Positions 1-55,993 of a stretch of DNA of 64,000 bases are shown here, in pieces (position 1 is the stretch's first letter; each line of letters opens with the position of its first letter). The notes beneath the pieces are model-generated. The model worked only from the letters and a program-made list of their open reading frames with translations. It was not told the DNA's origin and searched no databases. The position numbers and the translations under genes are program-made. Source of the stretch: an uncultured Lentisphaerales bacterium (GTDB taxonomy: Bacteria > Verrucomicrobiota > Lentisphaeria > JABSQK01 > UBA12247); NCBI GenBank assembly GCA_943788985.1, contig CALSSJ010000020.1, positions 1 through 64,000 on the forward strand, read 5' to 3'.

Positions 1-159
1 ACGATGTAAGTCCAAAGCGAGCCAACGACTGCACCCAATAGAACCGCACCGATAACGGCGCACCGATGACGGCAGATTTCGGAAACCCACGCGGAACTGC
101 CTCGACGAGATCCCGGTGGCTCTCCGGCATCAATTCCTGAAGATCGGTGTTTTTTTCAT
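1..159 (-). CDS. Integron cassette 10, partial: membrane protein running off the window edge; appears frameshifted
   Basis: ATG at 159, just inside the core site GTTCGGC (minus strand, 174-180). A hydrophobic stretch AVIGAVLLGAVVGSLWTYI is read after frame changes at an A-run and a short tandem duplication. Confidence 0.45.
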
Positions 160-173
160 AGTCTGATTTCTCT

Positions 174-220
174 GCCGAACGTCCGAGGTGTGGCTAGTCC
201 GCTGTTATGCTTTGTTAGCT
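174..220 (-). mobile_element. attC site, short/degenerate (47 bp)
   Basis: GCCGAAC (174-180) ... GTTAGCT (214-220) lies between two cassette ORFs, but the internal L boxes do not pair. Confidence 0.55.
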
Positions 221-247
221 AAGATTACAGACAAAAACAATACCGAG

Positions 248-907
248 TTATCGATCAACAATAAAGCACCCATCTTGGGAAATGGTGTTCTCATTCCAAT
301 CAATTCGATGCGCATACTCATAATCTAGGCCATAGTCCTGTGTACGAATGAAAATCACTGTAGCTGGGGTCATCGTTTCGCACTTAGCCTCTTCCATGAA
401 GTAGGTTTTTTGGTAATCAGCTGATCTCCATTCATATAGCTTAATCCTCCCGTCTTGATACCTTCCTAGTTTTCGTTCCCTAGTAACTCTGAGAGTGAGA
501 TCAGTTCCATTTATCTCTTTCCGCTCTTCTCCCTCACGCCATGGAGGTGTATATAAAAACGATGAGGTTTCACATTCAACAATACTAGCCTCAACAAGTT
601 TTCCGTAGTCGGAGATGTAATAGTATTTTGTGTGGATATGAAAAGAAAATGCCAACAAAACGAGAACCCCCAAAAAACACCATGCGTACCTCATTGGCAC
701 TTTAATCAGTATTACTATAGCACCAGACATTGCGCCAATAATGAGACCTACAAGGCCCCAAAAGATAGCGCCTAATAGCCAAAGATTCGATCCTTCCGCT
801 AGCCCAATAACTGCAGTCCATAAAAAACCCGCCACACAGCACGAAAAAGACCAGACAGTAAAATTAAATTTTTTAGGGGATGTAGGTAGTGGTGGTGGCG
901 TATTCAT
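248..907 (-). CDS. Integron cassette 9: hypothetical membrane protein (3 N-terminal TM segments plus a soluble domain)
   Basis: 219-aa AT-rich ORF bounded by attC sites. Confidence 0.75.
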   Translation of the reverse strand: MNTPPPLPTSPKKFNFTVWSFSCCVAGFLWTAVIGLAEGSNLWLLGAIFWGLVGLIIGAMSGAIVILIKVPMRYAWCFLGVLVLLAFSFHIHTKYYYISDYGKLVEASIVECETSSFLYTPPWREGEERKEINGTDLTLRVTRERKLGRYQDGRIKLYEWRSADYQKTYFMEEAKCETMTPATVIFIRTQDYGLDYEYAHRIDWNENTISQDGCFIVDR

Positions 908-919
908 AGCTGTATTGGG

Positions 920-979
920 TCCGAACGTCTGCGTTCACGCGCGCGGTATACCGCGTCGCTGTGCAACGCTTTGTTGGAT
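920..979 (-). mobile_element. attC site (60 bp)
   Basis: TCCGAAC...GTTGGAT; arms GCGTT-CAC / GTGCAACGC pair with one extrahelical base; central CGCGG-TATA-CCGCG hairpin. Confidence 0.92.
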
Positions 980-985
980 TCTCTT

Positions 986-2641
986 TCATTTTAGCTTGCC
1001 TGTTATTCTTGAGAGAGAAGGGGAATCAGCGATCTTTTTCCCGTCGGCAAGTAGTGTCAGTCCTTTACCTTTATTGTATTTCTCACCGGCCTTATCCCAG
1101 ATGATTGTCAGGATGCGGCCGTGATACAGAACATTATCCAGACAGAAGTAGTCCCACGTTTTGTCGGGGAGTAAAGGGTTCACTTCAACCACATCGTCAG
1201 ACCGTGGCCGTAGCCCGACAAGCCCTGTGATAATCAAGTCATTATATGAAGAGTGATTATAGTCCTTGCCGCGGTGGGGTCCGCCCTTGCGCGTAGCCAA
1301 ATCAGGATCGGTCTTGGCCCAGTCATGCAGGCGGGTACGAGCAATCCAGTCGCCGGTGTAGGGGTGAATGTTTTCATCGATCCATGGAACTACTTTGCCG
1401 TCTTTGCGCTTAAACTGATGGGAACGGGTGTAACACTTGAGGGTTTCGAAGTAGGCGTCCTTGCCGATGACGTCCTGCTGGTAGTTGTTGAGAAGGTTGG
1501 CGAGGGCGGTGAGGGTTGAACAGGTGGCAAGCGGCCAACTTGGGCCGTTCCATTGGCACTCGTGGCCCTCGTAGGAGAGCCTGAAATGCGGGTGGCGCTG
1601 CTCGGCGAAGGTGGGGCCGAATTTGGCGTAGAATCCCTCGGGATTCATCAGCTCCTTCCAGCCCGCCTCGTAGCCGGGGTCAGGCAGGTTGAAGTACCAT
1701 GGGGTGTAGCCGTAAAGTTCGCGCACGTCCTTAAGAGCTTCGTTTCTGGACGGGAGGTCCTTGCGATGAGGAGCAGAGAGAATTTTGAAGAACTTGGCCT
1801 CAGGATCCCAGAGCTTCTCTTGAATGAGTTTTTTGAGCGTCGAGGCTTTTTGCTCGTATTCTGCCGCGATGTCATCTTTGCCCGCCATGCGCGCGATGCG
1901 GGAAATCGCCTTGGCGTCGCCATACATGAAGCTGTTGAGCGTCGGGCGGAAGCCGTGTTTGCCGATGGAGGCCTCGCCGCCGTCGCGGTCATCGATGGTG
2001 TAGAACAGGCCGTTTGGCCGCTGGCCGATGTGAACCTGATGTTTCTTGTTCCATGGTGGCCAGACCCAGCCCTTTTCCCATGCCTCGTAGTTGTCGATGA
2101 GGTCGGGTAGCAGGTCGATTAGAAAAGGATCATTTGGGGTGACTAGGTTCCGGTTGTAGTAGGCATCTGCGATCCAGAAGCTGTAAGAGCGAAGGCTGCC
2201 GCCTTTGCGCAGCCAGAAGATGGCGTAATCATCCATGACCTTGGGGTCGTGCAGCCAGCGGCCCTCGTAGAAGTGGTGGGCGGCGGGGCAACTAATGGTG
2301 TTGTGTTTGCCCGCCCAGCTGACCTTGGGCATGAATTCGGTAACCACATAGCCGTCCTCGGTTTTCTTGATGTGTTTACGGTAGGTCCACCAGCGGAAGT
2401 AGTAAGTGCGGCGGAAGTCTTCGTCCGGGCAGTCAAAGAGGGGGATGTTGTTTTTCAGGAACGCGTAGGCATCTTTGTTTTTGATGTTGGAGAACATCTC
2501 CTCGTCATCCGCGTTGAAGCGCTCGACATACTCTTCCAACTTAGCTGTTGTCAGAACAAATGCCTTTGTTTCGGTGGCAGGTGACCAGCCAGACGTTGTA
2601 ACCGACGCCACAATTAACGCGATGAGTTTGAGTGTGTTCAT
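986..2641 (-). CDS. Integron cassette 8: secreted (alpha/alpha)6 glycoside hydrolase, MGH1/GH63-like
   Basis: Signal peptide from M at 2641; motifs YYFRWWTYRKH, HHFYEGRW, DDRDGGE, VRELYGYTPWYF, CQWNGPSWP, DYNHSSY; flanked by matched cassette ends ATCCAAC/GTTGGAT. Confidence 0.8.
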   Translation of the reverse strand: MNTLKLIALIVASVTTSGWSPATETKAFVLTTAKLEEYVERFNADDEEMFSNIKNKDAYAFLKNNIPLFDCPDEDFRRTYYFRWWTYRKHIKKTEDGYVVTEFMPKVSWAGKHNTISCPAAHHFYEGRWLHDPKVMDDYAIFWLRKGGSLRSYSFWIADAYYNRNLVTPNDPFLIDLLPDLIDNYEAWEKGWVWPPWNKKHQVHIGQRPNGLFYTIDDRDGGEASIGKHGFRPTLNSFMYGDAKAISRIARMAGKDDIAAEYEQKASTLKKLIQEKLWDPEAKFFKILSAPHRKDLPSRNEALKDVRELYGYTPWYFNLPDPGYEAGWKELMNPEGFYAKFGPTFAEQRHPHFRLSYEGHECQWNGPSWPLATCSTLTALANLLNNYQQDVIGKDAYFETLKCYTRSHQFKRKDGKVVPWIDENIHPYTGDWIARTRLHDWAKTDPDLATRKGGPHRGKDYNHSSYNDLIITGLVGLRPRSDDVVEVNPLLPDKTWDYFCLDNVLYHGRILTIIWDKAGEKYNKGKGLTLLADGKKIADSPSLSRITGKLK

Positions 2642-2658
2642 GTGTAGCTCTTGTCTAA

Positions 2659-2767
2659 ATCCAACGTTAAGGGTGAGTTTCGCGGAAACCAACCATAACT
2701 ATTGCGCGTGCATTTGATTTCAAAATAACCGAGCGTTTTAAGCGTAAACTCTAACCTCTGGTTGGAA
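2659..2767 (-). mobile_element. attC site (109 bp)
   Basis: ATCCAAC...GTTGGAA; arms GGTGAGTTTCGC / GCGTAAACTCTAACC; abuts the stop codon of the next cassette gene. Confidence 0.88.
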
Positions 2768-2768
2768 A

Positions 2769-3350
2769 TTAGTATGTTATAAGCTTTAGATAGCAGAGAT
2801 CTGATTCTTCACTCACGAGTAAGCGAATACATTTTAGCTCAGTCTCTGATGAGTAGTATTCGTTTATTTTCATGCTTTCAGGTCTCCACCAATAGTAGTG
2901 AGCCCTCATCTGTGCCGTGACTGTATAGTCAGTCAGTTCTTTTGGGGTCAATGAAAGATCATTGATAATCTGACGTTGCACTTGTGGATCAGCATGAAAT
3001 CGAAATGATCCATCATAATCCAGCCAGGCTCGTGCTCTATAATACAGGTGGTCGACATCATAATCACCGATGCGATTGATAAAATGTTTCTGATGTGAAG
3101 TTCGGGGAGGAAGGTCATAGTAATCAAGGGGGGTTATGACGATAAGTATAGCTGTAATCCATGATGCTCTCTTAAAGCTTCTTCGATTAATGAGAAAAAG
3201 TAAAATGAGAGGAATGGAGCAATATACCGAGAAGTATAAAAGAGTCATATGCGGAGGGCTTCCAAAAAAGAAAACATGGGTTGCTCCATATGCAAGCACA
3301 AGTGAAATGACAAAGAGTGTATGAGCAATAATGGAAAAAAATCTACGCAT
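2769..3350 (-). CDS. Integron cassette 7: hypothetical membrane protein
   Basis: ORF with 3 hydrophobic segments. Start taken at MRRFF because the longer ORF runs into the attC. Confidence 0.75.
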   Translation of the reverse strand: MRRFFSIIAHTLFVISLVLAYGATHVFFFGSPPHMTLLYFSVYCSIPLILLFLINRRSFKRASWITAILIVITPLDYYDLPPRTSHQKHFINRIGDYDVDHLYYRARAWLDYDGSFRFHADPQVQRQIINDLSLTPKELTDYTVTAQMRAHYYWWRPESMKINEYYSSETELKCIRLLVSEESDLCYLKLITY

Positions 3351-3374
3351 TGTATTACTTCTATTTATCTCCGT

Positions 3375-3434
3375 TTCCAACGCCAAGGTGACTCACGCGA
3401 GGAACGAGCGTTGATGTCCACCGTCTTGTTCGCG
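3375..3434 (-). mobile_element. attC site (60 bp)
   Basis: TTCCAAC...GTTCGCG; arms GGTGACTCACGC / GCGTTGATGTCCACC. Confidence 0.88.
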
Positions 3435-3609
3435 AAACCATTTTATCACAGATGAACGAATCAAAGTGCAAGCTAGACTCACCCACCGCAGCTTCGCGAG
3501 ATGCAGGGTGTGTGACAAGGGCTGGAGGGCTCACCGCTTGCCCCTCGCCAAACAAGCATCGACCGATCACCGATATGCGGGCGGCGAGGGATTGCCCCTC
3601 TTTTTCTCT
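3435..3609 (-). other. Integron cassette 6: ORF-less cassette with stem-loops and a candidate promoter
   Basis: 175 bp between two attC sites; cassette ends GTTCGCG/CGCGAAC are perfectly complementary; no credible ORF is confined to it. Confidence 0.8.
3440..3471 (-). promoter_or_regulatory. Candidate sigma-70 promoter (extended -10 TGnTAAAAT, upstream TTGCAC) reading into the downstream cassettes
   Basis: Minus strand reads TTGCACtttgattcgttcatctgTGaTAAAAT. The -35 spacing is 20 bp, so the extended -10 is the main signal. Confidence 0.5.
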
Positions 3610-3671
3610 CGCGAACGTCTGGGCTTAGAGGCGCGAGGTAACGAGCGTCTCTCTCCAGCCCTTTGTTCGAC
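3610..3671 (-). mobile_element. attC site (62 bp)
   Basis: CGCGAAC...GTTCGAC; arms GGGCTTAGAGGCGC / GCGTCTCTCTCCAGCCC. Confidence 0.88.
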
Positions 3672-3679
3672 AAAATCGC

Positions 3680-4744
3680 TCACTCTTTCGAGAAGCTGAT
3701 TTCGTGAAATGGTATTGTGTATTCAACGCGTTGATTCCCACGAATATCCCATATTTCTGCCAACAGGTTGGGCCTGTGGCCCGATAACGTAATCGTAAGG
3801 AGCCCAAAGTGATTGTCCATGATGGGACCCTCGATCCGATTCCTGTTCGGCGTGGCAAACGTCCATGTCTGTGACAGTCCACTTGCTGTGATGTCGTACA
3901 GCGGATAGCAATCGTCATGCTCGAACTTTGAAATCTCTGCGTAGTGAACATCCCCGCTAAGGACGACAAGATGATTGGCTTGCGTTTTCTTGATGAGTTG
4001 AATGAGGCGTTCTTGCTCATGCGGAAAGTTCGCCCACGCCTCATAGCCGTTATAATCGATTCCGAACTGGGTGCCCGAAGCAAGAATTCGACAGTCCGCG
4101 GGTTGGCTCAGTTCGTCTTCCAGCCAGGCCCATTGCTCTTCACCCAGGAGTGTTGCTGATTGGTTCGTATGGGGCGCATAGTCCAAATGATAAAAGAATC
4201 GTTTGGGTCTGTTGGTCTGATCTGTTCTCTTGACGAGGTCATCCCTGAACGTGCGGCCGTCCAGCAGAATGATCTGTATCGTTTTCTCTCCTACGCTCCG
4301 ATAGACCGAGTGGTAGATACCTTCGTGCTGATACCGCTCTGAATCCTTGGGTTCTTCGAAGAAGTCCAGGAAGATCTTCTTGGACGCCTCCTTGTGCGGG
4401 TAATGCTTCCCTGCATCATTCTGCCCGTAATCGTGGTCGTCCCATGTCGCGAGAATGTCGGTGTGCCTTTTCAAGTTCAGATACGAGGGCTTGGTTCCCA
4501 GTTGCCGATACTTGTTACGGAGCACATCCATATCCATGGTGTCGCCATAGATGTTGTCTCCCAGAAAGAGAAACACGTTGGGTTGATGCTTTACGACTTC
4601 ATTAAGAATGGGAAGAGGATGTCCCTGATTCCCGCACGAGCCAAAGGCTATGGTGAAAGTAGTGGCTGGGTTGGGTTCGCTTTCACCAGATGCGCACTGG
4701 CAGATGAGAAAGAGAAGAGCAAGCAGTTGTCGTGTGATCTTCAT
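3680..4744 (-). CDS. phoD: Integron cassette 5: alkaline phosphatase D family metallophosphatase, secreted
   Basis: Motifs IAFGSC, FLGDNIYGD, TWDDHDYG, LLDGR, LLGEEQWAWL, LSGDVHYAE; N-terminal signal sequence. Confidence 0.88.
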   Translation of the reverse strand: MKITRQLLALLFLICQCASGESEPNPATTFTIAFGSCGNQGHPLPILNEVVKHQPNVFLFLGDNIYGDTMDMDVLRNKYRQLGTKPSYLNLKRHTDILATWDDHDYGQNDAGKHYPHKEASKKIFLDFFEEPKDSERYQHEGIYHSVYRSVGEKTIQIILLDGRTFRDDLVKRTDQTNRPKRFFYHLDYAPHTNQSATLLGEEQWAWLEDELSQPADCRILASGTQFGIDYNGYEAWANFPHEQERLIQLIKKTQANHLVVLSGDVHYAEISKFEHDDCYPLYDITASGLSQTWTFATPNRNRIEGPIMDNHFGLLTITLSGHRPNLLAEIWDIRGNQRVEYTIPFHEISFSKE

Positions 4745-4774
4745 ATATTCTGGATGTCTTTGGATTGATCTGTC

Positions 4775-4861
4775 GTCGAACGCTTAACATCACCGGAAAA
4801 ATAATGTTGCAGAGCGAAGCGGAGCATCTTTATTTTGTCCGAGTGCATGTTTTTGTTAGAC
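4775..4861 (-). mobile_element. attC site (87 bp)
   Basis: GTCGAAC...GTTAGAC; arms AACATCACCGGAAAAATAA / TTATTTTGTCCGAGTGCATGTT. Confidence 0.88.
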
Positions 4862-4864
4862 TTT

Positions 4865-5969
4865 TTAATATTGACTTTGTATTACTAGGCTGTTTGCCAT
4901 AAGCCTAAACAGTGGATCAAATTGAGATATTTTTGCTCTTAATTCTTCCTCTGTCTCATTTGGCATTTTCGTAACCTGACACTGCAAGAAAATCATGTAA
5001 CTCTTGTATATGGCGATATACATCCTATTATACATCGTAGTATTGAGATCTAACCGTTGTGCATCGCCTATAAAATCAAGCACCGCTCCTGGCCAACGAT
5101 CGATTACAACTCTTTCTGTATTTATACTTCTGACATTGCTCATACCCATTCCATTAGCCATCTCTATGAGGCTACTTTTTGAAAATACTTCCAATGCTAG
5201 TTCTTTACTTCCCTCTATTGTTTGAAGCGCATTAATCTCTTGGCGCGTTAATTCGCCTTGTGCTTCTTTTTACAAGATCTCGCGTCATTATCAACGCTCC
5301 AGCAGGTCCTCTTCCGTTGTTGCTACTAAAATACTTAATTACATTAGGCCTATTCCCTTCCCGTTTCGACCAACTTCTTGGATATTCAATTTGTAAATCT
5401 AGCCCCTTAGATTTAGGATGCCCTTCTGTCCGATAAATAGTCTTAAAACCACGCAACAACTCATTAACTGGGTTTTCTTTAAACTGATAGATCAAAAGAG
5501 TTTCAAGTATTGGTGAAGGTATTTCGCCTGCTGCTCTTAACTTTACTTCTTCAAGAAATTGAACTGCGATATCTTGGGTTATCTGCTGCGATTTAAGAGT
5601 ATCATCTAATTGTTTTCTCATTATTGAGATAAACTCAGAATATTTATCCTTAAATAAACCCTTCAACTCTTTTTCTATATTTTTCTCAGAAGTACCAAAA
5701 GAACTATTAAATTCAAGCTCTGCTATTTTTGCCTGCAATGACAGTGTTGGGTATTCAGCCTTTATTCGATTAAGGCTGAACCTTTGTCCCATGATGAAAC
5801 CTAATGTTTTGGTAAGGTCCACATGAATCGGTTCTTTAGAGGCCTTGCCAACAGCATTTTGTGAAAAGGCAATACTTAACAAAACAATGAAAATAGAGAA
5901 AAAAAGCTGATGTATGCTCTCCCTTTTGCTGGGATGGATTTTTTTTAGTTTTATCATGAAATCGCCCAT
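4865..5969 (-). CDS. Integron cassette 4, gene 2: hypothetical exported protein, split by one frameshift
   Basis: ORFs 5232-5969 and 4865-5194 join (...DLVKEAQGELTRQEINALQ...) when one base is removed from the T-run at 5267-5271. Confidence 0.7.
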
Positions 5970-5971
5970 TA

Positions 5972-6268
5972 TTAATCATTTACTTTTTGATGATTCCAGC
6001 GATTTTTTAAATAAATTCCATTAATTATCCATAGTAATGGATTAAGGCTTATTATCGTTGCGATCAGAAATGCATATTTATTAAATTTTAATATCATTAT
6101 CATTAAGACTGTATTTATTCCAATTAACACAACTGCTAAACCAACTAAATCACTGAGCGTACCAAGCATATACAGATTACCTAAAGTTAAACCTAGCCAT
6201 GCCCATATATTCCACCATTTAAAGCCAATATCTTGGCTATCATTTACTAATTTTTGATTTTCAGTCAT
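5972..6268 (-). CDS. Integron cassette 4, gene 1: small membrane protein
   Basis: 98 aa, three hydrophobic segments, RBS GAGGGA, very AT-rich; no attC between it and the next gene. Confidence 0.75.
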   Translation of the reverse strand: MTENQKLVNDSQDIGFKWWNIWAWLGLTLGNLYMLGTLSDLVGLAVVLIGINTVLMIMILKFNKYAFLIATIISLNPLLWIINGIYLKNRWNHQKVND

Positions 6269-6292
6269 TACTATTCCCTCTTATTTTGTGAA

Positions 6293-6417
6293 GTCGAACG
6301 TCCGAGTCATCCTACGCCTGACCGAGGGCGCGCTCTGACTTCTGTGTTGATGGTTGAATGGTCATGATGCTTTCGACTCGCGGCGGGTCAGGCGTTAGGA
6401 TCGACGTCTTGTTCGCC
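6293..6417 (-). mobile_element. attC site (125 bp)
   Basis: GTCGAAC...GTTCGCC; arms GTCATCCTACGCCTGACC / GGTCAGGCGTTAGGATCGAC. Confidence 0.9.
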
Positions 6418-6428
6418 TCGTTGGTTTC

Positions 6429-6995
6429 TTACCAGTTTTCAGCGTAATAAAGAACTTCGTTTCGTTGCAGGCTGACGACCATGCCTTTGCTTTCACCGTG
6501 GTTCCAGTCATGCCCCGACCCCTTCCGGTAAGGCTCCGCATGAAAGATGAAAATCCTGTAGTCGCCTGGAAACTCGTATGTGCCCTCGGTAAGAGTGTGT
6601 GGGTGGGTGCTCCACAATCCATCATCTTGCTCATTGACAAGGGTTACAGAGTTCCCTCCGTCCTGATGCTGCTTCGCATTTTTTGTCGCGTGTTTGTGGA
6701 GGCTCTTCACTTCCGCCTCAGGAAGCTCCATTCTGAGTTGAACATGGCCGCCTCCCTGAAGAAAACCCGGGGACGAAGAAAACCTCACGGTGCGAGCGCT
6801 CGGTGGCACCGAACTGGGGAAATGATCGACTAGTCCGCTAGCCTTCCAATCTGCCAACACGTCCTGATACTCATCTATGGAACCAATTGGCTCTAGCGCT
6901 TTGTTGAAGCTGTAGACCATCCACGCAAATCCCAAGACACCCACCAGCACCAGGGCTCCTAGAATTCCGCCGATCCACTTTAGAGCACGTTTCAT
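6429..6995 (-). CDS. Integron cassette 3: hypothetical membrane-anchored protein
   Basis: 188 aa, single N-terminal TM segment, bounded by attC sites. Confidence 0.8.
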   Translation of the reverse strand: MKRALKWIGGILGALVLVGVLGFAWMVYSFNKALEPIGSIDEYQDVLADWKASGLVDHFPSSVPPSARTVRFSSSPGFLQGGGHVQLRMELPEAEVKSLHKHATKNAKQHQDGGNSVTLVNEQDDGLWSTHPHTLTEGTYEFPGDYRIFIFHAEPYRKGSGHDWNHGESKGMVVSLQRNEVLYYAENW

Positions 6996-7001
6996 TTTTC
7001 T

Positions 7002-7058
7002 GCCGAACGGCTTGGTCAGGGGCTGAGGTACGAAGTCCCTTGCACCAAAATGTTAGGC
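7002..7058 (-). mobile_element. attC site (57 bp)
   Basis: GCCGAAC...GTTAGGC; arms TTGGTCAGGGGCT / AGTCCCTTGCACCAA. Confidence 0.9.
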
Positions 7059-7384
7059 TACTGCTGTGGAGAGCCAATGCACTGGTACTTAGCTATAACT
7101 CTCCAACGAACACAGTTACCATAGCCATCGTAGGCTTGGCATTCAGACGTGGTGCCGCCAAAAGCTTCCGCACTTTGATACCCCCAAGCTTTACATCGCT
7201 GTGTTGCGGTTACTAGCCCTTGATCCCACTGAACTTGAGGTTTCTCGAACGCGCCATATGTATAGGACAGTTCAACAACACCGTCTGCGCGGCTTCCTCC
7301 TGTAGCCTGTAGTGTTTTTACACTTGTGCACCCGGTTAACGTTGTGAACATAAATAGTAGGGCGAGTAATGGCTGTGTTTTCAT
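7058..7384 (-). CDS. Integron cassette 2: YecR-like lipoprotein
   Basis: Lipobox LTGC; TGGSRADGVVELSY, RCKAWGY, AEAFGG and terminal YQC are typical of the YecR family. Confidence 0.85.
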   Translation of the reverse strand: MKTQPLLALLFMFTTLTGCTSVKTLQATGGSRADGVVELSYTYGAFEKPQVQWDQGLVTATQRCKAWGYQSAEAFGGTTSECQAYDGYGNCVRWRVIAKYQCIGSPQQ

Positions 7385-7435
7385 TTTTAGCTCTCCTTTA
7401 GTTTTTTTTGAGATTGTTGAAGATTTTCAATTGCA

Positions 7436-7534
7436 GCCTAACGCCGGAGTCCAGCGGCATTTGATGCGCCGGCCGTTTTTGCGGCAGCAAAAATGGGTGA
7501 CGGGTCAAATGTCCGCTGCAACGATTGGTTAGGT
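7436..7534 (-). mobile_element. attC site (99 bp)
   Basis: GCCTAAC...GTTAGGT; arms CAGCGGCATTTGA / TCAAATGTCCGCTG. Confidence 0.92.
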
Positions 7535-7553
7535 AAACAACCACCTAAAGCAT

Positions 7554-8111
7554 TCATTTCATTCGTGTTACGTGGAATACATGACCCTTCAAGATCATTT
7601 TGCCCTCGGCCGGACAGAGCACCACTTCGGGGTAGTATTCGTACAGATAAAGGTATAGGTAGCTCGAATCTTTCCAGATGCTTCCATCTGCGAGCATGAT
7701 TAGTTCGCCGCCGTTACCGTTGAAGGGCGTTGGCTCCTGGATGTTGGTCTTGTAGCAGGTTTGTTCTGGAGCAGGCTTAGCCTTCGGCTCCGGTTTGCCT
7801 TGGCTAGATTTGGGTTTCGCGACATCAACGTTGCCCAAATGTTTTTCGATCGACCATTTGATCGGATCCTTGCCTTCGATGTGGATCGTCACCCACAGTG
7901 GCGAAATCTCCGCCAAGAAGGACTTCCCTTCAAACAACAGGGGAGAAAATTTGAGGGACCACTTTTCAAGCAGTAGCTGCTCGCCCTTCTCCGTAACGAT
8001 GATGATGTGGTCATCATCAATCTCCGTCTGCACAAAGACTCTTTGCACGTCAGCGTACGCTTGGCTCGCAAACAGGGCGAAAGTGACCAACAACATTCTT
8101 AAGGGTGCCAT
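7554..8111 (-). CDS. Integron cassette 1 (attI-proximal): secreted hypothetical protein with two small beta domains and a K/P-rich linker
   Basis: Signal peptide ending AYA; linker AKPKSSQGKPEPKAKPAP. Confidence 0.8.
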   Translation of the reverse strand: MAPLRMLLVTFALFASQAYADVQRVFVQTEIDDDHIIIVTEKGEQLLLEKWSLKFSPLLFEGKSFLAEISPLWVTIHIEGKDPIKWSIEKHLGNVDVAKPKSSQGKPEPKAKPAPEQTCYKTNIQEPTPFNGNGGELIMLADGSIWKDSSYLYLYLYEYYPEVVLCPAEGKMILKGHVFHVTRMK

Positions 8112-8122
8112 AGAGTTTGCCC

Positions 8123-8165
8123 TTGTTTACCTAACAGTTATTCTCCTGCATATGTATTAGCGAGA
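8123..8165 (-). mobile_element. attI site, crossover G^TT at 8135
   Basis: Minus-strand GTTAGGTAAACAA (8135-8123) is the 13-bp inverted match of 7528-7540; no attC-type palindrome upstream; adjacent to the 5' end of intI. Confidence 0.8.
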
Positions 8166-8193
8166 ATATGGCATCAAATTCTTAAAGCTGCAA
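8165..8193 (-). promoter_or_regulatory. Candidate cassette promoter Pc (TTGCAG-N17-CATATT)
   Basis: Correct spacing, points at attI; weak -10 match. Confidence 0.3.
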
Positions 8194-8219
8194 GCGGATT
8201 TGGCAAGAGTTGTTGATTT

Positions 8220-8236
8220 TTGGCACAGGAGTTGCA
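8220..8236 (+). promoter_or_regulatory. Candidate sigma-54 (-24/-12) promoter for intI
   Basis: TTGGCACAGGAGTTGCA = TGGCAC-N5-TTGCA with GG-N10-GC spacing, 50-75 bp upstream of the possible intI starts. Confidence 0.65.
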
Positions 8237-8309
8237 GGGTATCATTCTACAGTGAGCGGTACGTAAACCTGCAAGGCTCCAGTATATGCCTAGGCGAATG
8301 GAGCATCAA

Positions 8310-9707
8310 ATGACCATAAATTCGAGTGTGCGCTGGCCAGCTGGGTACTTCGAGGTGTTGGATGAGGCGCAGATCCCGAAGCGGCAGCAGGGGGTTCTAT
8401 GCGCACTGGGTGCGGCAGTTCTTCGCACGTTGCTTGGGGCAGCGGCGTCGACGAGACCTGGGCCGGGCAGAGATCAATGGTTTTTCTGCAGCTTTTGGGC
8501 GAGGACGAGACAACTGCCGACTGGCAGGTCGAACAGGCCCAGGGCGCTCTCGAACTCTACTACGAGCGTTTTCGCGGCATCGCGCTGGCTTCCCGGTCTT
8601 TCACCGCGGTCGCAGTTCCGATCGGTCCACTGCCGGAGAAAGCCGCCGATATTGGCGCCAAGCGCCCGATCCCCAAGCCCCGAGGTGTGACGCCACTCTT
8701 ATCGGTTCCGGCTCCCGTCGCGGCAGTCCCTCCCGCTCGCAAGGCAGATTTGCAAGCCTTAGAGGAGGCAGTAAGAGGGGCGCTGCGTGTCGGGCACTAT
8801 GCCTACGAGACGGAGAAGACCTATGGCTCGTGGATCAAGCGCTTCGTGCGCTATCATGGGGTGCGTCGTCCGTCGGAGATGGGGGAGGCCGAGATTCACC
8901 AGTATCTGAGCCATCTGGCGATCAACGAGCGTGTTGCGGCAACAACGCAGAACCAGGCGCTGAATGCGATCGTGTTTGTCTACAAAAAGGTGCTACAACG
9001 CGACTTGGGTGACTTCAGCGATTTTGCGCGGGCCAAGGTAGGAAAGCGGCTACCAGTCGTGCTGAGTCGGACAGAGGTCCAGGCCGTTTTTGAGCCGCCT
9101 TGATGGCGACGTTGGGCTCCTGGCACGGCTCCTGTACGGAACCGGTATGCGTGTGAGTGAAGGGTTGCGTCTGCGCGTCTGCAATATCTCGTTTGATCGC
9201 AATGAGATTACGGTTCGCGCTGGTAAAGGCAATAAGGATCGCCGGGTGCCATTACCGACGGTGTTGAAGACAAGCCTGGCGTCACATCTGGATACACGTC
9301 GTGCGCTCTTCGAACGGGATCGCGTAACCAACATGCACGAGGTAGAGCTTCCGCTGGCTCTGGCGAAGAAGTACCCGCAGGCGGCCTACAGTTGGGAGTG
9401 GCAGTATGTGTTTCCGGCAGATTCATTCAGTCAGGATCCGCGAAGTGGCCGTACCCGTCGGCATCATATGCACGAGGCCCGCATCCAGCGCGGGGTGAAG
9501 CACGCGGCTAGGGCCGCAGGGCTTACGACTCGGGCGACCCCACACGTGTTGCGCCACTCGTTTGCCACCCATCTCTTGGAAGCGGGACAGGATATTCGTA
9601 CGGTTCAGGAGCTATTGGGCCATAGTGATGTCAAGACAACAATGATCTATACGCATGTGTTGAACTCTGGCCCACTCGGTGTCACTAGCCCGCTGGATAC
9701 ACTCTAA
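8310..9707 (+). CDS. intI: Integron integrase (tyrosine recombinase), ~464 aa once three +1 homopolymer frameshifts are corrected
   Basis: [39 protein letters not shown]; IntI-specific insertion [19 protein letters not shown]; shifts at G-run 8390-8394 and T-runs 8481-8485 and 9087-9091. Confidence 0.93.
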
Positions 9708-9858
9708 CAGCCTGTCGGACTTAGGATGATCGGCTGCAAACCTGAGCGATTTCGATCATTTCTTGCGTAATTTTTGTTAAGTACGCTCTGTCGGGTTTGA
9801 AGCCGGGGGCTGCTCTCTGCGTGCAACATAGTCACAAGTATTGAGTCAATCCTGGCCC

Positions 9859-9887
9859 TTGCCAGGCATAATAGTGAGTGATATAGT
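9859..9887 (+). promoter_or_regulatory. Candidate sigma-70 promoter for the carbohydrate cluster
   Basis: TTGCCA-N17-TATAGT with an extended TG. Confidence 0.45.
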
Positions 9888-10092
9888 TCGATACCTACCA
9901 GCTTACGTCTGCTGTGAACGCACCTTTCGGGAGCCTTGGAACTCGGATGCCCGTCCCGACCTGGTAACGATTGTTTTGATTAATGCCGGAGGCCATGACA
10001 AAGCTGCCAGAAACGAGGCGAGATGCCCACTCATGCTTATCCGTGGTTCGAAGGGTCGGGAAGATCAGAATGTAAAACAAGGGTAGTCATCG

Positions 10093-13000
10093 TTGACACC
10101 GATACGACAGATAGCAGGATGGACGATGATACAGGTAGTGGCACTTTCCCTGATGGGACACGCGGCGACTCTCGATGCCTTGCAGGGCGTCGAGACTCCT
10201 GATATTTCACTGAATGGTGCCTGGCATTTTCAGTTGCCGGCGCCGGTCGGTTTCTGGAAGGAACCAGCCGTATCCGCGGGTTGGAAGGCCATGCCGGTGC
10301 CCGGCGACGTCTTTCGAGGAGGCCACTTGATCAAGGAAGACGAGCCTTTCGCCTACAAGCGCAAGGTGTTGATTCCTGCGGACTACGCAGGTCAGCAGAT
10401 TCGCCTGCGCTTTGAAGGGGCGCATGAATACGCTCGTGTCTGGGTCAACGCCACCTACATCACCGAACATCAGGGCGGCTGGACGCCTTGGGAGTGCGAG
10501 ATTACCGCTGCGGTCACGCCGGGAGAGGAGGCCTGGATCGCGGTGGAACTCACGGATCTCAAGAAGGATATCGCCTTCAATGGCAAGCGGCTGCGGGCCA
10601 TTGGCGGGCTGGTCCGAAGCGTGACCCTGCAGGCCCGCCCGAAAACGATGTTCGAGTTCCCGATTGTCTCGTCGCCGTTCGCCGAGAATGGCCGAGACGC
10701 GACCTTGACTGTGGTCGGGCAGGTGGCCAGCCCCGATCCCCAGGCATCAGCATCGTTCCGGCTGTTTGATCCGGCGGGGCAGGAGGTGAACATCTCGCCA
10801 GCTAGGTGTGTGCTGGATCAGGCCCAGGTCACTTGGACGGCGTTGGTGAAGAGCCCGGAGACCTGGGATGCCGAGCATCCGCGCTTATACCGCTTGGAGA
10901 TCACTAGCAAGGCGCCCAATCAGGCCGAGGCTGTGTATTCGCGACAGATCGGATTGCGGGACATTGGCTTCGATGACAAGAAGAACCTGCTGATCAACGG
11001 CAAGGTGGTGAAACTTCGCGGTGCCAACCGGCACTTGGTGAACCCGCTGCGGGGCTTTGTCCCCGACGAGGAGATTGACCGGCGGGATGCGGAGCTGTTC
11101 AAAGAGGCGAACATGAATTTTGTGCGGACTTCACATTATCCGCCTGGCATTGGCTTTGCCGAGCAGTGTGACCGCTCGGGAATCTACATGATCCTGGAAT
11201 CGGCGGTGTTGGATGTGGGCAAGAAGAACCGCCCGTCGAAGGGGATGCACGACGACCCAAAATACGAGCATCTGTTCGTGAATCAACTGCGCGAGATGGT
11301 GCTCAATTATGGCAGTCACCCGGCGATCATCCTCTGGTCGACCTGCAACGAGAGCCTTTATGGCAAGAATATGCAGGCCTCGTACGACTTTGTGCACGCA
11401 CAGGATCCGACCCGCCCGGTAATCGCCTCGTACCAGGTGGTGGAAGACCCGGAGCATAAGAGCTACGATGTGAAGAGTTCTCATTACCCGCGGTGGGACA
11501 GGGACTACGAAGTCACAACGATGCCGACAATCTACGATGAGTGGATGCATGTGCTGGGGCATACGGCTCACGAGTGGCGGCATGATCCAAACTCCCGTGA
11601 TTACTGGGGGCGAAGCCTTGATGAAGCTTGGAGTCGCCTCTTTCCGGCGAACGGCAGCGTGGGCGCAGCAATCTGGAATTTTGTGGATGATATGACCATT
11701 CAGACGGACCCGACGCAGAAAAGTGCCCGCGGTGCGACCCGACGCATGAACCCGGAGACTGCCAAGCTGGTTGTCACCGGAAATCCCAGCAATATTACGG
11801 GGACCGCCCGTTGGGGAATTATCGACGAGTGGCGGCGGCCGAAGCCGGAATTCTGGAATGTAAAGAAGGCGTATAGCCCCGCTCGTCTGCTGAAAACCGC
11901 GGTGCGCGATGCGGATCCCGCAGCTCCCATTTCATTACCGATTCATAACCGCTACGATCATACTTCACTCGATGAGATTACGCTGGTGATGAGCTATGAG
12001 GGCAAAACGGTGCGGCTACCATGTCCATCGATTCCTCCTCACCAAAAGGGGGCGATCGAACTGCCAGCCGCAGACTGGAAGGCAGGCACGACGGTGGATC
12101 TCTCCTTCGTGGATGCGGCAGGTCGACTGGTTGACCGCTATGTGATTACCTTGGGCGAGGTTGCCGATCCCGTCGCACCGGCAGTGTCTAGAACACCGGA
12201 GGTAACCGAAGAGGATGGGAAAATCTTGGTCCAGGGCGATGCGTTTTGCTTCGTGGTGAACCGTGAAAGCGGCTTGATTCAACGCATCGAACACGATGCA
12301 GAAGTCATGAAACTTACGGGTCCGCTCCCCCATATCGTGAAGCTAGAGGAGTATCTGTATGAAGGAGTGAATCCGGCAATCGGAGCCGGGCTGAAGACCG
12401 TTATGCCCAAAACGGTCAGCTACGACAGCCCTTTGTTCAAGGCGTGGAAAAAAGACATCGATTCGGATTGAAGAAAAGGATCAGTCGGTCGAGATTCATG
12501 TGGCGGGCCGACTGGACGCGATGGAGGTGACCTATATCTACATCCTCGGCGCCAACGGGCGCTTCGATATTGCGTATCACTTCGACAAGATCCCGCCCCT
12601 TGTCGTCGAAAACAAGAAGCGCGACCGGGGTGGGCCACTGAACCTCGAAGTGGGGATCAAGTTTCCTGGCCAGTGATCAATTTGATCGCTCGAGTTGGGA
12701 CAAGCAGGCCTACTGGTCGACCTACCCGGAGGGCCACATCGGCCCGGTCCACTGGCAGCATCGCACTGTTCACAACGGATAAGCCGGAATGGGCGCAGAA
12801 GCCCGACACGCCTTGGGCCCAAGATGTCTGGGACTTCTACTTCATGGGCTGGGGTGTGCCGGGAGGCAAGCTGCTGACCTACGAGGCGTATGCGGCGAAG
12901 CAGGCCATTCGGACCTACACCCTGGAGGATACCAATGCCAGCATGGCGCTAACCGTCTATGGCGATGGGCAAAACCACTACGGCCCGTTTCGGACAGTTC

Positions 13001-13134: not shown

Positions 13135-14718
13135 ATGATGATGGGAAGGGGCAAAGGCAAGAAGGAGCATCGTGTTGCAAGCGGGCTCTTCCTCCTCGTT
13201 CTCTGCGGCGCCCTGAGTGCCGGGGCGGAATTGTCGCTCCCCCATGTTTTCAGCGACCACATGGTCCTGCAGCAGGGAAAAGCGGTCAAGGTCTGGGGCT
13301 GGGCGACGCCCGGCCAGGAGGTCACGGTTCAGTTTCGCGGGGCTTCCGCGACGGCCAATGCCGGCGACGCCGGACGATGGGCGCTGCGTATACCATCCGG
13401 TAAAGCTGGCTCGGAGTCCTATCGCCTGCTGATCCGAGCTGGGCCAGGAGGAAATCGCCATTGAGGATATTCTGGTTGGGGAAGTGTGGCTCGCATCCGG
13501 GCAGTCGAACATGGTGTGGAAGCTGCGCCTGTCGCGGAGCCGGAGCGGGCGATCGCCGCCGCTGATCAGCCACTGATCCGGATGTTCCATGCTCCTAACG
13601 TAACGACTGAGCCGCCGCAGGACGATATCGAGGGACAGTGGACGGTTTGCTCGCCAGAGACCGCTGGCGAGTATTCAGCGGTGGCCTATTACTATGCCCG
13701 CAAGCTGCAGCAGGAGTTGAAGGTGCCAGTGGGCGTCATTGTCTCGGCCTGGGGCGGAAAACGCATCGAATCCTTTATCAGCCGTGAAACTCTTGGGGCT
13801 CGAGCTGAAACAAAGCACTTGATGACAGCGCTGCTGCGCCAGGAAAAGACCTATGATCCAGCGAAGGCGCTGGCAGCGTATGGGCAACGGAATGCAGCCT
13901 TTCAGGCTTGGATTGCTGAAGGACGCCCGGCAAACAAACCCCGCCCCATGCCCATGAAACATAAGCCTCAGCGCCCCCTGCTCACCGCCGGGCAACCGGG
14001 GGTGATCTTCAATTCGATGATCCATCCCTTCATCGGCTACGATGTGCAGGGCGCGATCTGGTACCAGGGCGAGTCCAATGCCCATATGAGCCTCTTGCCC
14101 TACGATGTCCTGCTCTCACTGTTGGTGCAGGACTGGCGCGAGCGCTGGGGCTATGATTTCCCGTTCTACTTCGTACAGCTGGCGAACTTCAAGGCGCCGA
14201 CCACGGAACCGGGTATTGAGCACCCGTGGCCCTATGTGCAAGATCGGATGCGCCGGGCCCTGGCGGTCATCTCGCATAGCGGCATGGCGGTGATCAATGA
14301 TGTCGGAGAAGAGAGCAACATTCACCCGAAAGACAAGCAAACGCCAGGCGAGCGCCTTGCCCGCTGGGCCTTGGCGAAGACATATGGAAGAAGCATGATT
14401 CATTCTGGCCCCCTATACGCATCATATCAGCGCCAGGCAGCTGCGTTGAGCGTGCGCTTTAGCTGCGTGGGCACCGGACTGCGATCCCGGGCTGGTACGG
14501 CACTGCAGCGCTTCGAAATCGCCGGCTCGGATGGTGTGTGGCAGTGGGCACAGGCTGAGATTGTCGGCGCCGACCGGGTGAAACTCAGCCACCCGAATAT
14601 TTCCGAACCGGTTGCCGCCCGCTATGCGTGGGCCAGTAATCCGACAGGCGCAAATCTGGTAAACAGCGAGGGCCTGCCCGCGTCCATATTCAGTACCGAG
14701 GACGACAACAAACAATGA
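13135..14718 (+). CDS. Sialate O-acetylesterase (SASA/DUF303) family; one frameshift near 13440
   Basis: [56 protein letters not shown]. Confidence 0.85.
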
Positions 14719-15422
14719 GACCATGCGCTGTAGCCAAGTCGCGCTTCACCCTGATTGAATTACTGGTGGTGATCGTCATTATCGCCATCTTAGCATCTCT
14801 ATTGCTGCCTTCGCTGGCGAAGGCTCGCGCAGCGGGGGCCCGGACGGCTTTTTGCCAGAATAATCTCAAGCAGATTTATCTGGCGCAGGCGCTGTACGTA
14901 AGCGAGAACAATGGGGGACTGGCCTGGACTCGCGTCGACCCAGGCGGGACTGCCCATTCGCAGACATGGATGTGGATGCTGGCGCCCGACCTCGGCCTCG
15001 ACCGTACGGAGGTCTATCCCTGGCGCGACGTCTATGTCGAGGACCTTGGCAGCAATGTCCTGGTCTGCCCCAGCGTCGAGATTGAACCGACCTACGACCG
15101 CCCCACGAACTATCGCGGATCCAAGTGGGCGGGGCATGGCAGGTATTACAACGGGTTTGACACGCCTACACAAACAGCGGCGCACCATGGGGGAGTTCTG
15201 CTGGCAAGGGTGTCAAAGCCAACAGAAGCGATGCTTCTTGGCGAGTCGAGCCAGAATGGCTACATCTACAATGGCGGTCACTTTCAAGATCCTGTCGTTG
15301 ACCGCGTGCATGCCGGTCAGTTGAACCGCCTGTTTGTGGACGGTCATGTCGGCAAGGGCGTTCTGACCAACGACTTGGACTACGTCTACTGGCATCGCTG
15401 GTCATGGTTTGACGGGCAGTGA
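14715..15422 (+). CDS. Prepilin-type N-terminal cleavage/methylation protein with an H-X9-DG C-terminal motif (DUF1559-like)
   Basis: [45 protein letters not shown]. Confidence 0.9.
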
Positions 15423-54113: not shown

Positions 54114-54599
54114 TTATTGATTTCTACCAAAAGTTTTATAGTTCTTCTCGGCTGCCTCAGCGATCAACATCGCGTCATCTGCCTGCAAGCGAATCGGCAC
54201 CAGAATCGAGCCCGATCCCGGATAGGACCGCGCCACAAAAGTCCCGCGATAAATACCGTCTACCATGAACACGAGCCGCCTGCCATGATAGTCAATGGCG
54301 GCCTGCGTCCACAAGTTTTCACCATGGCGATCTAGATGCAAGGCGAGGTGAAAGGTACCATCCCGCGATTCGAGTGCCTCTGCACTTGCGATACCTGGTG
54401 AGGCAAGCATTGGCAACCTACGCACATACAGCCTCTGGCCATCGACCATAATCGCGCGTTCGAACTTGCCCATACGGGGTGAAACCCGCGGAATTAGTTC
54501 GTGAATCGTGATTAGCTGGTGTCGCTTATAGAACGAGTCTTCAAATGTCTCGCAGCCTGTAAGTAGGGCCACCGCAATGAGAAGTGCTACGCACTTCAT
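54114..54599 (-). CDS. Lipoprotein, possibly SecDF P1-head-like
   Basis: Lipobox LTGC; LHLDRHG...GRRLVFMVDG pattern. Confidence 0.6.
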   Translation of the reverse strand: MKCVALLIAVALLTGCETFEDSFYKRHQLITIHELIPRVSPRMGKFERAIMVDGQRLYVRRLPMLASPGIASAEALESRDGTFHLALHLDRHGENLWTQAAIDYHGRRLVFMVDGIYRGTFVARSYPGSGSILVPIRLQADDAMLIAEAAEKNYKTFGRNQ

Positions 54600-55993
54600 A
54601 GGTCCTCTCCGTACTTCTCTTCGAACTGCTCTGCCGATATTCCCATCGCGTGCGCGGCCTTATTACGATCGCCATCCATAGCACGCAACGTGTGCGTCAC
54701 AAACTCCATCTCCTTCTGACGCAGAAACTTTCGCAGGGAGCGCCAGCGCAAATCGTACTCGTCTGAATAGCCTTTTCCTTGGCTGGAACGTACGAAACAG
54801 TAGCGAACGGGTCGGGGTAAATGCTCCAGCCGAATTCGACAATCCTCAGTGGCCGCGCGCCGCGCAGCCCGGCGAATTGAGCCTACAAGCTCGCGGACAT
54901 TCCCGGGCCAGGTGTAGGCCTCCAACGCCGCCATGGCCTTCATCTCAATCGAAATCTTCTTGTCTCGATTTAGATTCAGGTCATGCATCGTATGCTGGGT
55001 CAGGAGGGCGATGTCACCCGCGCGCTCACGCAACGGCGGAAGTTCAATCGTCGCCAGCCCCAGGCCGTAATAGAGTTCTTCGAGCAACTCACCGCGCGCC
55101 AGCTTGCGTTCGAGTGGCTCGGTGGAAGAGATGAGTACCCGGAACTCCGCCGGGATCGTTCGTCGATCGCGTTGAAACATCCCACTCTGCACGACGCGAA
55201 CTAAATCATGCTGGACGGAGTGAGGCAAACAGCCGATCTCATTCAGGTAAAGCGTACCGCCGTGCGCTTGCTCGAGGCAACCCACAAACGGTACGCGACG
55301 TCGCTCCATCTGCACCTGCGACTCCGGCTCGCTCCTGGCAGAGAATGGAACCCCGAAGAACTCATCGTGCAACATCACACTCGGGATGTCCAGACAGTCA
55401 AACTCAATAAAAGGCCCGTCGCGGAAAACGCCACAGTCATGGAGCGCACGCGCGACCAAGCTCTTGCCAACCCCCGACTCTCCAAGGAGGCAGAAGGTGG
55501 TTTCCATATCTGCCGCTTCAGCAATCAGATCATAGAGCTGACGCATGCGTAAACTCTCACCAATCATGCCCATGTTCGCCTCTACGGCCTTGCTTAGCTC
55601 CGTACCGCCGAGATTCGAGAACGGAAGTGCGCGGCGCACCACCGCCAGCAACTCCTCCAAATCGAACGGCTTCCCGATGTAGTCAAACGCTCCCAGCCGC
55701 ATGGCATTGATCGCTGAGTCGACATCTGCATGTCCTGTCATCATGACGACGGGCGTATTCGGGTGGGAATTCACCAGCATGCTGAGCACTGCCATGCCAT
55801 CGATCCCTGGCATCACCAAGTCCGTCAGCACGAGGTCGATGTCTTCTTCGTCGACAACTCGAACCACATGCTCGCCATGTTCAAGGGTAAACACCTCGTA
55901 CCCCTGCCGGCGCAGCAGCGTTTTCAACACAGTAATAATTCCTGGGTCATCATCAAGTACCAGGATACGATCTTTACGCGCGTCAGCCATCAA
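54596..55993 (-). CDS. NtrC-family response regulator (REC-AAA-HTH) with a degenerate sigma-54 activation motif
   Basis: VLDDD, TDLVMP, KPF; GESGVGKS; WPGNVREL; no GAFTGA; Walker B reads LYLNE. Confidence 0.88.
   Translation of the reverse strand: MMADARKDRILVLDDDPGIITVLKTLLRRQGYEVFTLEHGEHVVRVVDEEDIDLVLTDLVMPGIDGMAVLSMLVNSHPNTPVVMMTGHADVDSAINAMRLGAFDYIGKPFDLEELLAVVRRALPFSNLGGTELSKAVEANMGMIGESLRMRQLYDLIAEAADMETTFCLLGESGVGKSLVARALHDCGVFRDGPFIEFDCLDIPSVMLHDEFFGVPFSARSEPESQVQMERRRVPFVGCLEQAHGGTLYLNEIGCLPHSVQHDLVRVVQSGMFQRDRRTIPAEFRVLISSTEPLERKLARGELLEELYYGLGLATIELPPLRERAGDIALLTQHTMHDLNLNRDKKISIEMKAMAALEAYTWPGNVRELVGSIRRAARRAATEDCRIRLEHLPRPVRYCFVRSSQGKGYSDEYDLRWRSLRKFLRQKEMEFVTHTLRAMDGDRNKAAHAMGISAEQFEEKYGEDL

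Follow-up and report, generated by a model that had tools for sequence, protein, structure and literature searches.

In class 1 integrons and in the chromosomal integron of Vibrio cholerae, the integrase gene intI diverges from the attI site and its cassettes, the integrase promoter (PintI) lies in the interval between attI and intI, and a promoter directed toward the cassettes faces PintI near the 5' end of intI. Interference between promoters placed face to face is known from class 1 integrons. The characterized PintI are sigma-70 promoters with -35 and -10 hexamers that are repressed by LexA, and the ancestral integron is inferred to have been LexA regulated (PMC3108266). Integrons are thought to shuffle their cassettes "on demand," and the documented demand signal is mainly DNA damage acting via LexA (PMC8876359, PMC3108266). 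The inputs to integrase expression that are named in a 2022 review are SOS/LexA, cyclic AMP (cAMP)-CRP, the stringent response, RpoS (indirectly), FIS, H-NS, and IHF; the word RpoN occurs nowhere in its text (PMC8876359). Likewise, a full-text literature search yielded no report of sigma-54 (RpoN) control of an integron integrase among the matches listed, as far as the retrieved parts of these articles go (including PMC13732558 and PMC5963079). Here, we analyze a stretch of 64,000 nucleotides (nt) from an uncultured Lentisphaerales bacterium (positions 1 to 64,000 of contig CALSSJ010000020.1; hereafter, the window) in which a perfect sigma-54-type sequence lies upstream of intI and suggests that cassette shuffling may answer to a signal other than DNA damage.

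The window begins at a contig end and opens with a classical chromosomal integron, with cassettes diverging from intI. The integrase gene occupies positions 8286 to 9707 on the plus strand, as defined by its reading frames, TIGR02249, and the Pfam domains Phage_int_SAM_4 and Phage_integrase. The attI region is at 8125 to 8167 on the minus strand; on that strand, 8129 to 8135 carries the crossover core GTTAGGT, and on the plus strand 8134 to 8147 reads AACAGTTATTCTCC, which fits the pattern AAC-A-NNN-TATT-N-TCC that the closest relatives have in this position (both read by eye). Between attI and intI, on the intI strand, the sequence reads TGGCACAGGAGTTGCA at 8221 to 8236, a sigma-54-type -24/-12 element of the form TGGCAC-N5-TTGCA. 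It matches the consensus TGGCAC-N5-TTGCW at 11 of the 11 specified positions, and the GG (8222 and 8223) and GC (8234 and 8235) dinucleotides have the exact N10 spacing. An earlier reading of this DNA (here, the original prediction) had reported a 17-mer at 8220 to 8236 with exact GG-N10-GC spacing and facing intI, and the element was found as described. Three in-frame ATG codons, at 8286, 8298, and 8310, are candidate starts of intI, the last of them preceded by GGAG at 8300 to 8303. They lie 49, 61, and 73 nt, respectively, from the end of the element, in keeping with the 50 to 75 bp given earlier, except that the third start is at 8310 and not at 8311. In sigma-54 promoters, the GC dinucleotide is usually ~12 nt before the transcription start; placed by this dinucleotide only, the predicted start here is at 8246 to 8248 on the plus strand. 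The layout thus resembles that of the class 1 and V. cholerae integrons, including a candidate promoter that faces PintI from near the 5' end of intI. Unlike their PintI, however, the interval in the window has a -24/-12 element, no sigma-70-like match of at least 9/12, and no known LexA box.

It is the perfection of the match that is remarkable. With up to one mismatch allowed, the window contains 3 matches to the consensus versus 3.05 expected, so that only a perfect match stands out; perfect matches are expected by base composition at ~0.06 per 64 kb, and 8221 to 8236 is the sole one in the window. The stretch is present in marine and estuary sequencing runs of nine studies, with at least half of the words of the locus found in 17 DNA runs, and contigs from four of these runs, X1 (DNA) and X17, X18, and X19 (RNA libraries), were compared with positions 6000 to 12500. 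Contigs of three of these public runs (X1, X17, and X18) cover ~8140 to 8360, and in all three 8221 to 8236 is unchanged and free of insertions or deletions, with variation at the flanking positions 8219, 8256, and 8257. Hence, the motif cannot be put down to the indel-prone assembly. A BLAST search with 8134 to 8320 against the organism's own genome returned a single copy, which argues that the promoter region is not a repeat element.

Basal transcription from a sigma-54 promoter is practically nil, and its activation depends on a dedicated ATPase. We searched the genome (4.58 Mb in 48 contigs, 83.6% complete, 58% G+C) with domain profiles for both components. RpoN, whose presence the original prediction had proposed to confirm, is encoded on contig C48: Sigma54_DBD scores 189.6 bits, and the AID and CBD lie just upstream, so that all three domains are present. 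Nine matches to Sigma54_activat exceed 100 bits; the eight enhancer-binding proteins examined comprise GAF, REC, and sensor-less types, most of them carrying HTH_8, a Fis-type helix-turn-helix. We found nothing that ties intI to a specific enhancer-binding protein or a specific signal. A receiver-AAA+ sigma-54 activator lacking a detectable helix-turn-helix is encoded within the window itself (54596 to 55993, minus strand), 46 kb from the integron, and no connection between the two was found.

The use of the consensus elsewhere in the genome indicates how a perfect match is to be read. Across the 4.58 Mb, there are 13 perfect matches to TGGCAC-N5-TTGCW versus 4.4 expected by composition. Five of the 13 are intergenic, versus 0.66 expected under an analytic first-order Markov model, with intergenic DNA defined by a crude longest-ORF (open reading frame) map as 465 kb (10%). 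Besides the intI site, three of the four perfect intergenic sites precede plausible sigma-54 targets, and the fourth, on contig C12, is a copy of a repeat. Intergenic matches at 11/11 or 10/11 positions lie 37 to 121 nt before genes for Hsp70/DnaK, a DUF2339 membrane protein, a PspA/IM30-like fragment (24 bits, under the Pfam cutoff of 33.9), an ammonium transporter (amtB), glutamine synthetase (glnA), a universal stress protein (Usp), a DegP-like protease, and a DUF3127 protein. This set is a classical sigma-54 regulon, spanning nitrogen, envelope, and proteotoxic stress, and the presence of such textbook targets downstream of the other matches implies that the consensus predicts well in this organism. 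Together with this regulon, the excess of 5 over 0.66 makes it far likelier that a perfect, correctly oriented intergenic match is a genuine RpoN site than that it is a coincidence; taken at face value, the odds are ~6 to 1, or some 6 in 7 such sites not due to chance. The intI site shares the consensus of classical sigma-54 promoters of the glnA, amtB, and pspA types, and its distance to the start codon falls in the same range as those of the genome's own glnA, amtB, pspA-like, and dnaK sites. It differs from the classical promoters in that the gene served is the site-specific recombinase of a gene-capture system and in that no upstream activator sequence was recognized.

Perfect elements are also found at C10:51480-51495, 39 nt before dnaK, and at C15:19613-19628, before the pspA-like gene; dnaK under sigma-54 would be unusual, since model bacteria use sigma-32. 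The C12 match lies in a stretch of at least 196 nt that occurs in two identical copies 12.5 kb apart (perfect consensus at C12:1743-1758 and C12:14291-14306). In each copy, the consensus runs antisense to the local ORFs, and the pair is probably a repeated element.

Homopolymers of 5 nt near 8390, 8481, and 9089 each carry one letter too many in the assembly, which splits intI over four frame segments. TIGR02249 nevertheless scores 302.7 bits (cutoff, 265) on 9090 to 9704 alone, the C-terminal 205 amino acids (aa), and 118 bits on 8477 to 9100, the preceding 208 aa, and intact homologues of 461 to 484 aa align across all four segments. A 1,406-nt contig from the DNA run X1 covers 8330 to 9738 and has one letter fewer at each of 8390, 8481, and 9089; RNA-library contigs also lack the extra letter at 8481 (X19) and 9088 (X18). 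Once the three letters are removed, an uninterrupted frame of 472 aa runs from the ATG at 8286. We considered the possibility that intI is a pseudogene, in which case the promoter would be a relic. The extra letters are missing at three of three sites in X1 and at two of three in the RNA-library contigs, and both recA (C23:68873-70220, split over three frames) and rpoN are broken in the same way in the assembly; the pseudogene interpretation was therefore rejected, and we conclude that the frame breaks are homopolymer insertions of the assembly and that intI is intact in nature. Given such insertions, gene calls on this genome will give many false pseudogenes. A fourth homopolymer insertion, at 12448, is absent from the X1 DNA contig, and RNA-library contigs agree at 8481, 9088, and 12448. 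Contigs in X17, X18, and X1 share the sequence over 8140 to 8360 and then continue into unlike sequence; in X1, such a contig has a depth of 10.3, versus 5.99 for the one that extends into intI. In some of the population, intI may be disrupted, or placed in a different context, directly after its start.

The cassette array points to an integron in use. Contigs in X17 and X1 join positions 7005/7010 directly to 8133/8132, with 57 and 32 letters, respectively, on the shorter side of the joint. The joint fuses the attC that follows cassette 2 to attI, GTT to GTT, with the recombination point at G|TT of the core, which means that cassettes 1 and 2 (7058 to 8111) are missing and cassette 3 comes first in the X17 and X1 populations. 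Three runs have loose ends at 7009 with another neighbor beyond; the absence of coverage over 7085 to 7952 was counted only together with contig joints across the gap. These data show that the array has been reshuffled in nature and that the joints are products expected of integrase action at attI. With intI intact and the array differing at the exact attI crossover, a working promoter for intI is to be expected.

These observations are consistent with a model in which the sigma-54 holoenzyme binds TGGCAC-N5-TTGCA (8221 to 8236) as a closed complex, which an enhancer-binding AAA+ ATPase would remodel so that transcription starts near 8247 and produces a leader of ~40 to 60 nt before intI. The activator would bind within 8134 to 8220, the only stretch in which its site would stay put when cassettes change, or would act without a DNA site, as some enhancer-binding activators do. 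Integrase synthesis, and hence the excision and insertion of cassettes at attI (8129 to 8135) through IntI-mediated recombination of attI with attC sites, would then be gated by the signal of the activator and not by LexA and DNA damage. We estimate at about 55% the probability that the element is a real RpoN site that drives a lineage-specific, sigma-54-dependent PintI.

Several findings weigh against this interpretation. The rpoN gene (C48:456-1933) is itself split over three frames in the assembly; we take these breaks to be homopolymer errors of the kind seen in intI and recA. The transcription start was not found in the RNA-library data, which consist of assembled contigs without 5' ends or strand. 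Moreover, RNA-library contigs (X17, X18, and X19) cover intI and also the region upstream of the predicted start, at depths that track the DNA run, and thus provide no support for transcription or for a start near 8247. Conservation of the motif upstream of related intI genes, the lack of which is among the outcomes that the original prediction had named as refuting it, was not observed. A first set was drawn from 61 genomes that share the order or class of the host, with none from its genus or family; 14 of the 61 (own genome included) bear a homologue, with identities of up to 53%; 30 loci were fetched, 18 of them full length, and none of the 18 has a match of at least 9/11 within 400 nt upstream. 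A second set of 160 loci from genome and metagenome collections left 135 usable once we had excluded loci truncated at their 5' end and those having an ORF of <300 aa or <100 nt upstream; none of the 135 reaches 10/11, and the single 9/11 match is at -253.

The closest relatives in these sets, from Verrucomicrobiota and Kiritimatiellota genomes, are 64 to 74% identical to the window IntI in the catalytic domain; together with a DUF1559/N-methyl protein encoded in the window, their origin points to a host that is probably a member of the PVC group. Among these relatives, L049 to L055 and L129 to L131 resemble the window in having the attI motif AAC-A-NNN-TATT and a long integrase (461 to 519 aa) that bears an additional N-terminal domain, and they differ from it in having no -24/-12 element within 300 nt upstream. 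Several relatives have a TTGAC(A/G/C) hexamer before intI, as seen by eye; scoring of sigma-70 promoters did not clearly separate the relatives (best matches, 8 to 10/12) from the window (8/12). The comparison shows the sigma-54 motif to be a lineage-specific feature and not a feature of the family, with a comparison set too distant to test conservation within the lineage. Since the homologues are no more than 74% identical, the absence of the motif speaks for lineage specificity and not for the site being unreal. The extra N-terminal domain that IntI shares with these relatives spans ~110 aa (window 8286 to 8620; RWPxGYFxVL ... DWQ ... YYEQFRGI); it is 27% identical to the SAM-like domain of the same protein and looks like a duplicated N-terminal domain.

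In one alternative, the 16-mer is accidental, and transcription of intI comes from a weak or nonconsensus promoter of the sigma-70 type or from read-through. Chance alone would put ~0.66 perfect matches into the genome's intergenic DNA, so that one of the five could be accidental, and the motif was picked after the whole window had been read; its absence from all 18 and all 135 homologue upstream regions and the failure to find an activator site fit this explanation as well. On the other hand, the tally of five intergenic sites against 0.66 expected, with three of the other four before plausible sigma-54 targets, would be surprising for a consensus that matches at random, the orientation and spacing of the intI site are correct, and the intI strand of the interval offers no alternative promoter of at least 9/12 (the best relaxed match is 8/12, with a poor -10). 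We consider a chance match unlikely, albeit a possibility to be taken seriously.

Also counting against a sigma-54-dependent PintI, no activator site could be discerned. There is no inverted repeat of at least 8 nt within 8112 to 8320, and no upstream element beyond background is common to the interval and 11 other candidate sigma-54 promoters. In this comparison, 8134 to 8220 was set against the 220 nt upstream of each of the 11 promoters, with 500 random genome segments as background; the longest common words were 7 to 9 nt, within the spread of the random segments, and a shared activator site was rejected. A search of positions 1 to 10200 against Rfam gave no match at an E value of ≤0.1.

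A sigma-54 holoenzyme can occupy DNA without firing, and the missing activator site is also compatible with a different role, in which RpoN binds the element and mainly serves as a roadblock or competitor, its closed complex damping transcription of the cassettes. A consensus scan identified two sigma-70-like sites on the minus strand that point into the cassettes, versus 0.4 expected in shuffled sequences: TTGATG-17-TATACT at 8309 to 8281, a possible Pc within the 5' end of intI, and TTGCCA-17-AAGAAT at 8206 to 8178, each scoring 9/12. The first of these and attI flank the sigma-54 element, where a bound complex would stand in the path of transcription. However, the element points toward intI from a distance that is normal for a promoter, and the roadblock role has no direct support at this locus; it is, in addition, compatible with a promoter role. 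We regard damping of the cassettes as the main function of the element as rather improbable. If the element does act as a sigma-54 promoter for intI, it and the Pc-like site at 8309 to 8281 would stand face to face, and each may be disturbed when the other fires or is occupied.

A third alternative assigns the motif to attI. An imperfect direct repeat, TTGGCA..AGTTG, is found on the plus strand at 8200 to 8212 and 8220 to 8234, and its second copy overlaps the sigma-54 element, a further point to be held against a promoter. The repeat search paired CAAGAGTTG (8204 to 8212) with CAGGAGTTG (8226 to 8234; 9 nt, 89%), and the TTGGCA hexamers at 8200 and 8220 were noted by eye; the repeat is weak and may be due to chance. 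The attI1 site has accessory integrase-binding repeats, DR1 and DR2, and the copies here, 20 to 22 nt apart, could be their counterparts, with the likeness to a sigma-54 promoter incidental. In some relatives, too, direct repeats separate the attI core from intI, such as ATGCCTCAAAAA, which occurs twice in L133 (by eye), yet these share no sequence with the repeat in the window. Furthermore, the window repeat, with 9 nt at 89% plus a hexamer, is both short and imperfect, its first copy is not sigma-54-like, and RpoN could still bind a perfect site that also had a role in attI. An attI origin of the motif appears quite improbable to us.

As the original prediction had stated for CTGT-N8-ACAG and TGTTC-N4-GAACA, 8112 to 8320 contains no known LexA box; at up to one mismatch, no match was found to these two forms or to GAAC-N4-GTTC and GTTC-N7-GTTC, which are the known forms and may not be that of the host. 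The LexA box of this lineage may differ from them, and LexA control of intI is to that extent possible. From 30 lexA upstream regions of the organism and its relatives, we derived a candidate lineage motif, GCTnAT-N4-ATnAGC, to which 13 of the 30 score at least 8/10; its best score in the attI-intI interval is 7/10. In the organism's own genome, the motif shows no intergenic enrichment, and no tie to SOS genes was established; recA lies behind a cinA-like gene, which places its promoter beyond the reach of the comparison. The palindrome-like motif is located 70 to 105 nt before lexA in the organism (C16:10855-10870) and in relatives (L211 to L239) and is a candidate LexA box of the order or class.

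The proposal that intI is under sigma-54 and not SOS/LexA control has thus fared unevenly. The motif and its placing, the presence of rpoN and of activators, and the lack of a known LexA box speak for it; it has lost the expected conservation and gained no activator site. As in class 1 integrons and V. cholerae, a stress or nutritional signal would govern integrase expression. A sigma-54 PintI would be a different and very tight gate on the integrase and would suggest that sedentary integrons outside Proteobacteria have been rewired to host-specific signals. The locus would represent a new regulatory variant of a well-known system, at one site in one lineage. The broader claim is that this is the first integron with a sigma-54-transcribed integrase, strictly off until an ATPase fires, so that shuffling would be tied to a nitrogen, envelope, or proteotoxic-stress signal rather than to SOS, in a wild marine population whose array differs at the attI crossover; we would give it even odds.

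The cassettes themselves occupy positions 1 to 8111 on the minus strand, with ~10 short ORFs extending to the contig end, as taken from the ORF list, Pfam, and attC-like sites read by eye. The attC-like sites (RYYYAAC ... GTTRRRY) lie between the ORFs, e.g., ACCTAAC...GTTAGGC at 7532 to 7431 and GCCTAAC...GTTCGGC at 7057 to 7002. Counting from attI, the ORFs are at 7554 to 8111; 7058 to 7384, which encodes a YecR-like lipoprotein (Pfam); 6429 to 6995, the ORF of cassette 3; 5972 to 6268; 5232 to 5969; 4865 to 5194; 3680 to 4744, which encodes a PhoD-like phosphatase (Pfam); 2769 to 3386; 986 to 2692, which encodes a GH63/MGH1-like hydrolase (Pfam); and 248 to 907, all on the minus strand. Most of the remaining cassette ORFs have no Pfam family. 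The phosphatase-like and hydrolase-like proteins are in keeping with the earlier description of the array as carrying nutrient-scavenging cargo. Beyond the integron, a DUF1559/N-methyl protein is encoded at 14715 to 15422 of the window (Pfam).

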